NCBI GenBank assembly: GCA_011364905.1
Contig: RDNZ01000053.1
Span: 1 to 16,600 of the forward strand
DNA from: Candidatus Thorarchaeota archaeon
Lineage (GTDB): Archaea > Asgardarchaeota > Thorarchaeia > Thorarchaeales > Thorarchaeaceae
Length of the DNA stretch: 16,600 nucleotides
Reading direction: 5' to 3'
Part shown: one piece after another, positions 7,495 to 12,205 of the stretch
Numbering within the stretch: position 1 is the first letter of the stretch
Layout: the number at the start of each line of letters is the position of its first letter
Notes under the pieces: model-generated
Databases searched by the model: none
What the model saw: only the letters and a program-made list of their open reading frames with translations
What the model was told of the DNA's origin: nothing
Made by a program: the position numbers and the translations under genes

Positions 7495-7569
7495 TAATAA
7501 TGATGCAAAGGCATGGATTACCTGCTCTCAGTATGTAATTCATCTATCCTAATTCAATGAGGCTGTAGT

Positions 7570-8007
7570 ATGACTGACATTGATGATAGACAAAGAATTT
7601 TGCGTGCAATCAAGAAGTGTCTGATGGATGGAGATAAGCATTTTCAAGCGGCTCAAGATTCTCTTGATGAAGCTTACAGAGGATCTGTCGGAGTTGGAAT
7701 GACACCTCTATTAGGAGGGTACGCAATCAAGAACCCAAAGGACAATTATAGGCGAGCCTTGATCAATGTTGATTCTGCCGAAAAGTCATTGCTTCCTTTA
7801 ATAAAACGCTTCAGAGATGGAAGAGTCAATGCATCTCATTTCAAATCAGAAAAAGCAATGGTGATTCTAGGAGACCTCGCAGGGATGGACTATAATCTTC
7901 TCATCCACAAACTTGGCGAACAAAAAGGTCGTGAATCCACGTGGTATCGGTTGAAAGAGCTGAGAACTAAGATTGCAGAACTCGTGGACCTAATTGCAGA
8001 TCAGTAG
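7570..8007 (+). CDS. Hypothetical protein, predicted alpha-helical (145 aa)
   Basis: ATG with GAGG upstream, amphipathic helical pattern, co-oriented with neighbours. No family recognised. Confidence 0.8.
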   Translation: MTDIDDRQRILRAIKKCLMDGDKHFQAAQDSLDEAYRGSVGVGMTPLLGGYAIKNPKDNYRRALINVDSAEKSLLPLIKRFRDGRVNASHFKSEKAMVILGDLAGMDYNLLIHKLGEQKGRESTWYRLKELRTKIAELVDLIADQ

Positions 8008-8088
8008 TCTGCTGCAGAGCTAACAAAGATAATAACGATTCAATTGCAATCCCTGCTATCGGGGAAATCTGGAGAGTGGTCTTGTCCA

Positions 8089-8757
8089 ATGAGTAAATCC
8101 GGAAGCCATCCGCAACTTCTCGAAGAACTAGAGAGAGCTGAATCAGTTCTAGGGGATTTACTCGCAACTCTTGTGAGTTTAAACGCTGTTTTGAAACCAA
8201 TTGAACAAGATATGAAAGTGACCGATTTTGCTTCAAATGGAGAGTATGTTCAAGGAGTATCGAGGGGAATTGTTTGTGTACCATCGGGTCTGATCCAGGG
8301 TGATCCATTACAACAGATTATCGCAGAACGAGAGAAAGGCCGGAAATTTCCAGCGCTTATTAAAGCTGGAAACAGAAGCGAGTCGCCCGTTATTGTTGAG
8401 AGTATTGTTAACATGCTCCATGCAGAAGATGAGAAGAAACTCCTTGAGTTTGTGATTAATCTAAGATGGGCGGAGTTTCCTGCAGTTCTGGAGAAAGAGA
8501 ATACTATCATAATCGGAAATAGATACATGTCCGGAAGCCCGACTGAAATGGCCAATTTGCAGAAAAGATTGGAGGATCTAAACTTCTTAGTACTTAGAGA
8601 TAATGGGGAGTTTGGAGGTGGACCACTTATTTATGAAATAATCAAGTCATTCGAGGATAGACTAAATCTCCTGGTTGTGGAGTTGACTCTCTCTCGTAGT
8701 TCTGCAAATAAGCGCGAATCAGTGGTTGATATATTGGAGATGCTTGCAACCCTCTAG
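8089..8757 (+). CDS. Hypothetical protein with a degenerate N-formylglutamate amidohydrolase / Zn-exopeptidase-like fold
   Basis: ATG 8089 with GGAG upstream (ORF track start is TTG 8044). Motif order GIVCVPSG / PALIKAGNR / FVINLRW / IIIGNRYMSGS / LEDLNFLVLRDNGEFGGG / VVELTLSRS follows the FGase pattern PHSG / a.li.a..SR / llD.HS / d..lG...G.S / gy.v..N.pf.GG / a.QiEi.r. The CDS itself is well supported; the fold call is by eye. Confidence 0.6.
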   Translation: MSKSGSHPQLLEELERAESVLGDLLATLVSLNAVLKPIEQDMKVTDFASNGEYVQGVSRGIVCVPSGLIQGDPLQQIIAEREKGRKFPALIKAGNRSESPVIVESIVNMLHAEDEKKLLEFVINLRWAEFPAVLEKENTIIIGNRYMSGSPTEMANLQKRLEDLNFLVLRDNGEFGGGPLIYEIIKSFEDRLNLLVVELTLSRSSANKRESVVDILEMLATL

Positions 8758-8767
8758 GTGTTCAAAC

Positions 8768-11700
8768 ATGGGTTCAGAAAAGGAAAGCTCGGAGATGCAA
8801 TTGCCGTTTCCCCATGGAATAGAAATTGAGCTCCAAGTCATCCGAAAAGACGGCACCTGGATCCGTGGTGAAGATATTCTACAAGTCTTTGATGGGATAG
8901 TTTCAAGCGCAAAAGGCATCCTAGATAAGAAGATTCGAACATCATCTGTTGAGTCTGTGAAAAGAAAGTACAAGCAGTCAGCTCAGACGGAGGAAGGGGA
9001 GAGAGGGTCAAGAATAGTTGCAATCTATGACGACCCAAACAATGAACCTAAGGAGTATACGCTCTTAGGACACGACCCTAATGTGACCAGTCTAACTTGG
9101 ATTCTTGAAGTTGCCACACCACCCTGCACCACACTTGAGGAGCTCGCCTGGTGGGTTCAAACTCTTATAGCAATATCACAGGAATCGCTTCCCACTGATT
9201 CAAAGGCAATCTTGATTTCCACAGGCTTGAATCCAACTCAGGAATACGTGCGAAATCTATCTTTTGGAGAACATCATCATATACTCGGAAAAGCCAGTGA
9301 TGAGAGAACGAAGATTGCTGTTTACAATATGATCAGGAATTTTCTCCCACATTTGATTGCCCTCTCCGTCAACTCACCATTTGAGAACAAAAAACCAAGT
9401 GATGAAGTAGCAATATCAGAAGATGGAAGACTGCGTGCTCCTCGCTGCAAGAGATCAATCAGATTGTTCAGAAACACAACGCAAATGGGACCAACGAATG
9501 AGTTTGAATTGATTCCGTATTTGCGTGAGCCGGATAAGGAAGCATTTGCGCGTCATGTGAATCGAAGCTATGCCCGAATGGTTGACATGTATCCATTCAC
9601 TGACTATGGGACCATAGAGATACGTGTATTTGACACTCAATTGTCAATTCCGCGACGCATGGGCTTGGCATTACTGTTGCAGGCTCTAGCACTTAAAGCC
9701 AAACGTATGGTTGAACGTGGTGAAACTATTCCTGATGTTGGTTCAAAGTGTCTGGCCGCAAACAGAGACTCAGCATTATCAGCTGGCTTATGGGGGCCAT
9801 TCCGACCTGGAGAAGAAGACAAGAACTCAGACTATGTCAAAATATACAACCATAGCATTTCCGATGATGGTCTTGTCAAAGAGGGAAAGAAAAATCGCTT
9901 TCTTGGAGATGCAGTTGTTTCAATGCTTTATCTCATCAGAGATGAGCTCGAAGAGCTAAACATAATCGAGAATCCGTTCATCCAAGCTTTACTTGTCTCA
10001 GTTTTTGGTAGCGAATATGTTGAGGCAAGAACAACCGGTGCAGAATTCCAACTGGAGGTCTTCGCTCAGTCGGATAATAACATGGTCGTTTTAATGAAAC
10101 GCCTTTCAGAAGTAACAAGAGAGTGTAGTACAAATTGGTTGTATGATCCGCTTGAAGGAGCGCCTCATTTACCAACATGGTTGTGCTGGTGGAAAGGACT
10201 TGAACCTGAGATTGTCATCGGTGCAGAAAGAGTATTTGCTGGCCAAGATGTTCAATTCAGCATAATTACTCGAAACTCTACTGGGAAACAACTTGAGAAC
10301 ATTTCAATCTCCTATAGAGTCGAAGATTCGGAAAGAAACATCGTTGAGAACAATGTCCTAGCAATTTCCAGTATACATAATGGAGAAATCCAGGTTTCCG
10401 ATGTTTCTTTCAAGACACGGAAAAACATCACAGCATACAACATCATTGCTGAGGTTGCATTTGTTGGAAGAGTAATCAACCTGACAAGTACAATCAACAT
10501 GTATTGGATGAAAGCATCAATCAGACCAAGGACAACAACCCAATTCGCAGATGGAAAGACTCCAGTCCTATTTGATGGACAAATAGAAACAAACTATCCT
10601 ACTCAGACTAGCGTTCAATGCCAGATCAGTGTTATAGCCCCAAGTATAGAGAAAGTCTTGGTTTCATCTCGTGATGCCATGCTGGTTGAAAGTGGCGAAG
10701 TAACTAATTTGGACAATACAAAGTTTCGCCCAATCTTGGTCCCATCTGACAGTGCAGAGGGTGTCGAAAGGTGCATTCTTAAGCTTAGCCTCTTCAATAA
10801 TGATGGGACAGAAATCGCAGAAGCTATGTCAAAGCCATTCTATGTTGGATTTGTTAAAAGAGGACCACAAATCATCTTAGAAACAGAGCTGAAAAACGAA
10901 TATCAAGTGGGGGATTTGATATCTGGAGCCATACTCGTGACCAACTTGCAAAAACGAGTTGCTGCTGATACGAGGTTACTTCTGGAATTTAAAAGCGATT
11001 CTGGTAGAACACACATCATTGAGGAGTTCCTCAAAGAGGAACTCCAAAGCGGATCTGTTAGCTTTGCGTGGAAAGTTCCAGCCATATCCTTTGAAATCTC
11101 AGCCGACCGCGTAGGAGTACTCAAAGCTTCCTTAAAACAAAAGGGAGAAGTGATTGCATCAACCGAGTCTGAGAGATTGCGGATTGAACAGGTAACAACA
11201 AGAGTCAACATCGACTCTCTTAGAGTCACTAAACGTTCACACATTGGTGGGAAGGTTTCAGGATGGTTGAGAGTCCGCCGTAATACAGAAACTGGCGAGC
11301 CCGCCGTGCTTAATATGATGTTTGTTTTTCCTGATGGCGATGAGCATCATGTACTTAGTCAACCCGTGAAGCAGAGCAAGAACCTTTCAGTTGCGTTTGG
11401 TCCAATAGTTGTGCCTGCGCCAAGAACAAACACAAATCATAGAGTAATCACCTTGATAGCCGCCTTGAGTTATAATGGCGTTGAGGTTGATAAGCGTTCA
11501 AGCGATATAGATCTGATGGGCGGACCTCTAATCGAAATAGCCCAGATCGAATTCGTCGGTCTGCCCACCTTCACAGCTCCTGATGAGCTCATTCGGCCAA
11601 CTATCAAAGTAACAAGCAATGTTGATAGAAGAAGCAATTGCATTCTCTCAGTCGAGCTTGAATCTGTCGGTGGAAACAGGGAAATACTCAGTCAGGATTT

Positions 11701-12205
11701 GGAACTCAATCCTGGAGTGGAGCGACTGTTCCCGGTTCCTTTCAGGGTCCCATTGGGAGCAGAGATGAGCACAGCTCATTTGAGAGCAACATTACGATGC
11801 GATGAAAAATCGTACGAGAAAAGACAAAGATTCAAGATCAAAGCAATTGAGTCGCCGCTTTTCAAAATAAGATTTTCAATCCTGAATGAAGCAGGTGAAG
11901 AAATCCCTGGTCTAGTAGCAAGATTATCCACTGTGGAAATAGTGACAACTGTTGAGAGTATACGCGAGAAGATTGGAGAATTGACAGTCAAATTAAGAAT
12001 AATGTCACGGCGAGATGTCGTCAAGGAGTTTGAGGTTCAATTGCCTGATCCTGAGTCGAAGGTTAATGTTGTAAGAATTAGATGGATTACACCTCCAATC
12101 GACGTTGTGACAGGATATTACTTAGACGCCATTGTTCTGCAAGCTGAGAAGCAGTTACCCTCGAGGGCTGTAGATTTGGTCAAACGACAATTCACCGTGT
12201 ATTAA
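8768..12205 (+). CDS. GCS2-family (glutamate-cysteine ligase 2/YbdK-like) carboxylate-amine ligase fused to about 6 C-terminal beta-sandwich domains (~1145 aa)
   Basis: GIEIELQV (GxExE), LEVATP, STGLNP, FGEHHHI, LPHLIALSVNSPF, SIR, GTIEIRVFD and ANRDSALSAGL match GCS2/YbdK motifs in order. The remaining ~665 aa are beta-strand rich. ATG 8768 follows AGGTG and lies 10 nt after the upstream stop. Confidence 0.88.
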   Translation: MGSEKESSEMQLPFPHGIEIELQVIRKDGTWIRGEDILQVFDGIVSSAKGILDKKIRTSSVESVKRKYKQSAQTEEGERGSRIVAIYDDPNNEPKEYTLLGHDPNVTSLTWILEVATPPCTTLEELAWWVQTLIAISQESLPTDSKAILISTGLNPTQEYVRNLSFGEHHHILGKASDERTKIAVYNMIRNFLPHLIALSVNSPFENKKPSDEVAISEDGRLRAPRCKRSIRLFRNTTQMGPTNEFELIPYLREPDKEAFARHVNRSYARMVDMYPFTDYGTIEIRVFDTQLSIPRRMGLALLLQALALKAKRMVERGETIPDVGSKCLAANRDSALSAGLWGPFRPGEEDKNSDYVKIYNHSISDDGLVKEGKKNRFLGDAVVSMLYLIRDELEELNIIENPFIQALLVSVFGSEYVEARTTGAEFQLEVFAQSDNNMVVLMKRLSEVTRECSTNWLYDPLEGAPHLPTWLCWWKGLEPEIVIGAERVFAGQDVQFSIITRNSTGKQLENISISYRVEDSERNIVENNVLAISSIHNGEIQVSDVSFKTRKNITAYNIIAEVAFVGRVINLTSTINMYWMKASIRPRTTTQFADGKTPVLFDGQIETNYPTQTSVQCQISVIAPSIEKVLVSSRDAMLVESGEVTNLDNTKFRPILVPSDSAEGVERCILKLSLFNNDGTEIAEAMSKPFYVGFVKRGPQIILETELKNEYQVGDLISGAILVTNLQKRVAADTRLLLEFKSDSGRTHIIEEFLKEELQSGSVSFAWKVPAISFEISADRVGVLKASLKQKGEVIASTESERLRIEQVTTRVNIDSLRVTKRSHIGGKVSGWLRVRRNTETGEPAVLNMMFVFPDGDEHHVLSQPVKQSKNLSVAFGPIVVPAPRTNTNHRVITLIAALSYNGVEVDKRSSDIDLMGGPLIEIAQIEFVGLPTFTAPDELIRPTIKVTSNVDRRSNCILSVELESVGGNREILSQDLELNPGVERLFPVPFRVPLGAEMSTAHLRATLRCDEKSYEKRQRFKIKAIESPLFKIRFSILNEAGEEIPGLVARLSTVEIVTTVESIREKIGELTVKLRIMSRRDVVKEFEVQLPDPESKVNVVRIRWITPPIDVVTGYYLDAIVLQAEKQLPSRAVDLVKRQFTVY

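Follow-up and report, generated by a model that had tools for sequence, protein, structure and literature searches.

A conserved gene pair of Asgard archaea encoding a putative amide-bond ligase and a hydrolase-shaped partner

Contig RDNZ01000053.1 of a Candidatus Thorarchaeota archaeon (assembly GCA_011364905.1) carries, between positions 7570 and 12205, three neighbouring genes that we call A, B and C. They lie in the 16,600-nucleotide stretch of DNA that was analysed as a whole and is referred to below as the window. B, coding for a protein with a hydrolase-like shape, and C, coding for a long protein headed by a ligase domain, form a conserved two-gene unit. With a probability of about 0.6 we consider B and C to be the core of an Asgard-specific amide-bond ligase module, in which B would be a non-catalytic subunit, a separately encoded hydrolase of the Amidohydro_2 family would reverse the bond, and A would not be a tag. 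A preliminary description of the locus, made from the DNA letters, had suggested a tagging system composed of all three genes.

Results

B and C form a conserved, probably translationally coupled unit

Reading of the open reading frames (ORFs) of the window gives three co-oriented genes on the plus strand. Gene B (8089-8757) encodes 222 amino acids from an ATG shared among its orthologues, the longest ORF beginning at TTG 8044. Gene C (8768-12205) encodes 1145 amino acids from ATG 8768, with the longest ORF beginning at TTG 8726. Exactly 81 nt separate A from B (8008-8088) and exactly 10 nt separate B from C (8758-8767). The B stop codon TAG (8755-8757) overlaps the ribosome-binding sequence AGGTG (8756-8760), and the C start codon follows 7 nt downstream. 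This arrangement was correctly read in the preliminary description, and the TAGGTG at the junction (8755-8770) is identical in all 13 orthologous loci examined. Because the B stop codon lies inside the Shine-Dalgarno site of C, B is probably synthesised in step with C by translational coupling. Each of the three proteins is conserved in dozens of genomes, demonstrating that A, B and C are real genes. The contig is thorarchaeotal, and close public homologues of C are named Candidatus Thorarchaeota.

We then compared the neighbourhood across 80 loci, each species being represented by one genome. B immediately precedes C in Thorarchaeia, Jordarchaeia, Freyarchaeia and Asgardarchaeum. In a set of 121 Asgard genomes of at least 80% completeness, 52 carry the ligase and 27 carry B; all 27 B-positive genomes also have the ligase, and none of the 69 ligase-negative genomes has B. 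Every B that could be located in this set adjoins a ligase of 1140-1200 aa with a macroglobulin (MG)-type tail (families f1, f2, f6, f7 and f19); no B was found with the ~1000-aa ligases. The co-conservation of B and C expected in the preliminary description thus extends over five Asgard families. Adjacency to the peptide importer, which had been regarded there as perhaps incidental, is indeed so, since the pair persists without the importer in other lineages.

C combines an intact ligase domain with a large beta-sandwich array

Residues 1-475 of C (8768-10192) are a deep-branching member of the YbdK/GCS2 superfamily of ATP-dependent carboxylate-amine ligases (PF04107, TIGR02050, 1r8g). The GCS2 profile PF04107 scores 26.4 bits against a cut-off of 21, covering residues 163-207 only, and the YbdK profile TIGR02050 gives an E-value of 3e-17 with 62.9 bits against a cut-off of 176.4. 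C stays far below the cut-off of every YbdK/GshA equivalog (NF0100xx). In a profile search of the PDB, E. coli YbdK (1r8g, E 1.6e-13) and a Salmonella homologue (1tt4) are the sole solved sequence relatives, and no chain of PafA/Dop, GshA or glutamine synthetase (GS) was returned at E up to 10. A Pfam scan at E up to 0.1 yields GCS2 and MG2 only and no Pup-ligase family. The kinship with PafA/Dop suggested in the preliminary description therefore finds no sequence tie in the hidden Markov model and PDB searches.

The motifs GIExE, ILE-x-TPPC, H-x-H, NSP and GT-x-E-x-R-x-x-D-x-Q are invariant in 13 homologues from five Asgard families, and the metal- and ATP-binding motifs ExE, E, HxH, NSP and ExR align with their YbdK equivalents. 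As the catalytic motifs are invariant and aligned to those of YbdK, the ligase looks active, and the earlier view of C as an intact GS-fold ligase of YbdK/GCS2 type with a large non-catalytic tail (~475 aa followed by ~670 aa, close to the ~665 aa first estimated) stands. A quick maximum-likelihood tree groups the long ligases in a single clade, which a long branch separates from YbdK proper and from an intermediate group of ~350 aa (SH-aLRT 100). The phylogeny called for in the preliminary description thus sets C apart from YbdK; the tree was built without PafA/Dop, GshA and EgtA, and their exclusion rests on the profile and PDB searches.

The remainder of C (residues 476-1145, 10193-12205) is predicted to be cytoplasmic and to fold into six tandem MG/Ig-like beta-sandwiches, all-beta and with no helical domain in the AlphaFold2 model (pLDDT 84.2). 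Top Foldseek matches are the MG-domain arrays of C3/C4/C5, A2M, CD109 and TEP1 (E 1e-15 to 4e-20), accompanied by a weak Pfam MG2 match; global TM-scores against these arrays are low (0.13-0.28), and judged from the model the likeness may only reflect repeated Ig-like sandwiches. The tail contains no CGEQ thioester motif, and no signal peptide, transmembrane (TM) helix or hydrophobic segment was found in C. In the closed chromosome CP070658 the C orthologue (L076:6827-10432) is interrupted in the beta-sandwich tail by an in-frame TAA at 9203-9205, leaving ORFs of 792 and 408 aa; readthrough, a nonsense mutation or an error in the sequence could each explain it.

A profile search of 1.84 billion representatives returned about 100 ligase clusters at E below 1e-30. 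Every relative found that carries a name is Asgard, the exceptions being two contigs with the labels Bathyarchaeia and Thermoproteota. The architectures of the clusters are very varied and comprise the ligase alone (~470-600 aa), TM-anchored forms of ~700 aa, a fusion of a vWA domain to the ligase (P0232), a Zn-ribbon form, and giants (2200-3800 aa) that contain HhH and coiled-coil regions. We had considered the ~700-aa homologues as fusions to B and rejected this, their N-terminal extensions being TM-anchored domains instead. Four of the giants (P0206, P0217, P0227 and P0234) carry the ligase domain near the C-terminus together with HhH motifs, and one is annotated at source as SbcC-like.

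B has a hydrolase-type fold without the usual catalytic residues

In the AlphaFold2 model of B (pLDDT 80.9) a long N-terminal helix of 35 residues (residues 7-41) precedes an alpha/beta core spanning residues ~50-222. Two structural searches assign the core to a phosphorylase/hydrolase-like, c.56-like fold. The VIA search places pyroglutamyl peptidase I (Z 10.8, root-mean-square deviation 3.0 Å, 142 residues), N-formylglutamate amidohydrolase (FGase, 2q7s; Z 10.1), an M42 peptidase (Z 10.1) and the MTA nucleosidase MTAN (Z 10.0) side by side. These matches are tied (Z 10-10.8, deviations of ~3 Å, 140-160 residues), so that no single family can be named. Foldseek ranks the PAC2-type proteins PbaB/PbaA first (E 4e-6, TM-score ~0.5), and neither is among the top 50 of the VIA search; the B C-terminus, ...ATL, lacks tyrosine and forms no HbYX tail. 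A language model gave FGase and the poly-gamma-glutamate hydrolase PghP (PF05013) as a lead (only 0.87), with no sequence-family match. No Pfam or NCBIfam family matches B, and feature searches of the Atlas led back to nothing but the clusters of the proteins themselves.

An alignment of 31 B sequences, recognisable by the motifs DRSES, NLRW, GEFGGGP and ELTLS, contains no conserved cysteine or histidine, not even a nearly invariant histidine, and no conserved set of metal ligands. B therefore has neither the catalytic dyad of pyroglutamyl peptidase nor the Zn ligands of FGase/PghP. Nearly invariant polar residues are D72, R96, E98, N124, R126, R145, D171, E198, T200 and S202, together with the GGGP loop, and the model places them on strands of the predicted sheet or immediately behind such strands.

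These residues leave room for the suggestion that B has hydrolase activity of a kind not yet recognised and is itself the eraser, or else an editing subunit, all the more as nucleosidases of the same fold work without cysteine or histidine. We regard this as improbable. B offers no conserved cysteine, histidine or metal-ligand set and belongs to no known family, it has been lost in three genomes that keep C, and it evolves faster than the ligase domain of C (~60% versus ~85% identity within a genus). From its sequence, the label 'pseudo-hydrolase' is plausible relative to the peptidases. The 'dead hydrolase' of the preliminary description therefore holds for a hydrolase-type fold devoid of the cysteine, histidine or metal ligands of its neighbours, although B might, with low probability, support a different chemistry. 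We favour B as a most likely non-catalytic substrate-binding or regulatory subunit, which would have retained a conserved polar pocket and an N-terminal helix for docking.

A 575-aa gene upstream of a short Heimdall-type ligase (L018:4628-6355) encodes 90 C-terminal residues that resemble B weakly and keep the order of its motifs (hhalign E 0.007, probability 6%), which is no more than a lead.

A metal hydrolase and a vWA protein accompany the ligase

In Jordarchaeia, Freyarchaeia and Asgardarchaeum loci, as well as beside a ligase paralogue that has no B, the ligase gene is followed by genes for a vWA protein and a PF04909 (Amidohydro_2) amidohydrolase. In Thorarchaeota genomes the hydrolase gene shares a contig with the ligase, at a distance of 9-13 kb, and in the genome of the window itself the Amidohydro_2/vWA pair is found on contig C18, with the hydrolase gene at 40700-41860. 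The preliminary description noted that such ligases often have a bond-reversing peptidase or amidohydrolase encoded beside them. Here the candidate is Amidohydro_2, and not B, and it sits elsewhere in the genome; in other classes it is adjacent.

The Amidohydro_2 orthogroup is present in 53 of the 121 Asgard genomes, its pattern over families matches that of the ligase, and it is present in two copies where there are two ligases. The protein matches PF04909 with E-values of 5e-13 to 3e-17, and its metal-ligand set (HxH, H, H, D) is complete: D29, H31, H33, H184, H252 and D310 are invariant in the alignment. Judged by these residues, it is predicted to be a catalytically intact metal hydrolase. 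Ligase, hydrolase and vWA protein are an Asgard-wide gene set that is undescribed in the literature searched.

This pairing bears on the nature of the substrate. In one alternative the genes serve a small-molecule pathway: C would make gamma-Glu-Cys or another gamma-glutamyl or acyl amide, Amidohydro_2 would cleave a related metabolite, and the tail would be an oligomerisation device or scaffold. The closest characterised relatives, YbdK and the haloarchaeal GshA (PMC7278568), use free amino acids, an Amidohydro_2 domain and a GS-like ligase form a known metabolic pairing in FluG (PMC6478659), and the Heimdall-type homologues consist of the ligase only (~550-590 aa). Against this, C falls far below the equivalog cut-offs of YbdK and GshA and forms a separate clade, metabolic enzymes do not usually bear additions such as the vWA, Zn-ribbon, HhH, coiled-coil, TM-anchor and MG-array parts of this family, and the constant companion is a protein-docking vWA domain. 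We consider a purely small-molecule pathway somewhat unlikely, a sizeable minority chance. The substrate of C as such could be a protein or a small molecule: its interaction domains and the accompanying vWA protein speak for a macromolecule, the kind of enzyme and the example of FluG for a metabolite.

Several further genes were seen near these companions. On the minus strand of contig C18, an 883-aa ORF (L107:7861-10512) runs divergently from the Amidohydro_2/vWA pair; it is weakly similar to both queries and has no Pfam match, and a second vWA gene cluster lies just upstream of it (L107:4191-7604). The B-less ligase paralogue of one Jordarchaeia genome (L097:3415-6409) is preceded by genes for a Cdc48-type AAA ATPase and an ArsR-type winged-helix regulator.

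Gene A is a lineage-specific neighbour

Gene A (7570-8007) encodes a basic protein of 145 aa (pI 9.2) whose last residue is glutamine. It belongs to an orphan family of 333 clusters, nearly all named members of which are labelled Thorarchaeota, and it matches no Pfam or NCBIfam family. A helical structure is presumed from a weak similarity to the helical hairpin of CesA (E 0.006). A profile of A shows no relation to the ligase domain, to the protein encoded upstream of B in Jordarchaeia and Freyarchaeia, or to an 800-aa EAP30 protein (see below). Four of 22 A orthologues matched GCS2 weakly (E 0.0055 and weaker), which we judged to be noise. In two Thorarchaeota loci gene A is tandemly duplicated (L051:2099-3178 and L054:5184-6191).

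The preliminary description proposed a pupylation-like system in which A, ending in glutamine, is the tag or substrate, B the reader or adaptor and C the writer. Consistent with this, the three genes stand side by side in one orientation in almost every locus of one Thorarchaeota family, A remains beside C in three genomes that have lost B, and PafA/Dop share the GS fold. However, the last residue of A takes 11 identities in 55 orthologues (A, E, Q, L, N, T, I and others), and the conserved Gly-rich loop of the protein has no invariant lysine or glutamate. A is restricted to a single Thorarchaeota family; searches run with a positive control did not find it in five Thorarchaeota genomes that keep B and C, including CP070658, and in a sister family an A-like gene lies on a different contig from B-C. 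C has no Pup-ligase family match, and neither proteasome nor Mpa/ARC ATPase genes are among the neighbours in the window.

A promoter-like (TATA/BRE-like) element occupies the spacer between A and B (8017-8044, plus strand), with the core AAAGATAATAAC at 8025-8036. An exact 14-mer of this box recurs in the same spacer of 28 loci and occurs once in the window, and near-identical boxes precede B in lineages that have no A. From this conservation we infer that the box is the promoter of B-C itself, and its position between A and B argues further against a three-gene system. Thus, A is unlikely to be a tag, it is doubtful whether it belongs to the system, and the pupylation-like scheme as a whole appears very improbable. 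Within the ligase module that we prefer, A would be a Thorarchaeota-only neighbour upstream of the B-C promoter-like box. At most it would be an accessory that is optional and specific to this lineage, comparable to the unrelated genes found upstream in other classes.

In Jordarchaeia and Freyarchaeia the gene upstream of B encodes an unrelated coiled-coil protein of ~400-425 aa, whose stop codon overlaps a GGTG site. Two distant Asgard lineages have in this place a gene for a protein of ~800 aa (L013:3462-5879 and L096:3925-6309). These two proteins are related along their full length and contain a central coiled coil, a CarboxypepD_reg-like sandwich and a C-terminal ESCRT-II-type EAP30/Vps36 winged helix (E 3e-19).

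Surroundings of the locus

A-B-C is flanked upstream by an opp-type peptide ABC importer and downstream by DUF92, PfkB-like and SPFH genes. No Rfam family and no meaningful repeat was found in the region; a 30-nt A/C repeat was judged to be noise. A PADLOC defence search returned no match for A, B, C, the Amidohydro_2 hydrolase or the vWA protein. In 12 orthologous loci (within L002-L020) the oppF stop codon is followed by a conserved hairpin formed by CACGGGTG, 6-10 nt and CACCCGTG, and then by a T-rich run, which resembles a terminator or processing site. The oppF-A spacer of the window (7495-7569) does not contain this hairpin.

Discussion

By analogy with the YbdK/GCS2 superfamily, the N-terminal domain of C would convert a carboxylate into an acyl-phosphate and couple this to an amine. 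The six sandwiches behind it are probably a scaffold or an arm for docking the target, and B would bind C as a subunit that recognises the substrate or regulates the reaction. The bond would probably be reversed by the separate Amidohydro_2 metal hydrolase that travels with the vWA protein.

Several points weigh against this assignment. B was not found with the short Heimdall-type ligases or with the ligase paralogue of 1230-1410 aa, and three Thorarchaeota genomes keep A beside C with no B anywhere in a search with a positive control, so B is not obligatory. The tail of C could simply serve oligomerisation, and the conserved pocket of B could support an unrecognised chemistry. Moreover, related genomes are not independent, and the co-occurrence of B and C amounts to about 5-8 family-level lineages.

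A more far-reaching version would be a reversible, Asgard-specific amide mark on proteins, with the ligase as the writer, B as its subunit for presenting the substrate, Amidohydro_2 as the eraser, the vWA protein as an adaptor, and the proteins encoded upstream (A, the coiled-coil protein or the EAP30/Vps36 protein) providing targeting. We regard this version as speculative and on balance unlikely; if true, it would mean that the archaea most closely related to eukaryotes mark proteins by a system independent of ubiquitin. For the ligase module in general, a protein substrate would mean a new reversible modification system in the lineage that gave rise to eukaryotes, and a metabolite substrate a new Asgard-specific compound.

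Our literature searches found no description of this ligase family beyond a count of Asgard matches to GshA InterPro families (PMC7278568). C resembles YbdK/GCS2 enzymes in the alignment of its GIExE, HxH, NSP and ExR motifs. Its ligase domain differs in being ~100 aa longer, in forming a clade of its own at the end of a long branch, in its fusion to an MG/Ig array of 670 aa and in its coupling to B. Unlike the arrays of the C3/A2M family, the tail of C is cytoplasmic and lacks the thioester domain, the CGEQ motif and the helical domain.

PafA and Dop are GS-fold amidoligases that act in a writer/eraser logic. In contrast to the PafA/Dop-Pup system, C has no sequence match to the Pup ligase family, there is no Pup-like disordered tag with a conserved terminal glutamine or glutamate, and no linkage to a proteasome. 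The candidate eraser also differs, being here a TIM-barrel amidohydrolase and in the Pup system a paralogue of the ligase. As in FluG (PMC6478659), the activity of which is itself unproven, a PF04909 hydrolase appears functionally tied to a GS-fold ligase; unlike in FluG, the two are encoded by separate genes, the ligase is of the GCS2 branch and not of GS type I, and vWA and B partners are added.

The fold relatives of B include pyroglutamyl peptidase I, N-formylglutamate amidohydrolase, the poly-gamma-glutamate hydrolase PghP and the PAC2-type proteins PbaA/PbaB. Several of them act on glutamate amides, while PbaA/PbaB are scaffolds of similar shape that are not enzymes. B is set apart from these neighbours by the absence of catalytic cysteine, histidine or Zn ligands and by its additional N-terminal 35-residue helix. 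The pairing of a GS-fold amidoligase with a hydrolase is a known design, used in glutathione-type syntheses, FluG and pupylation. What sets the present branch apart from it are the MG arrays, the vWA domain, the Zn ribbons, the HhH motifs, the membrane anchors and a dedicated partner with the shape of a hydrolase.

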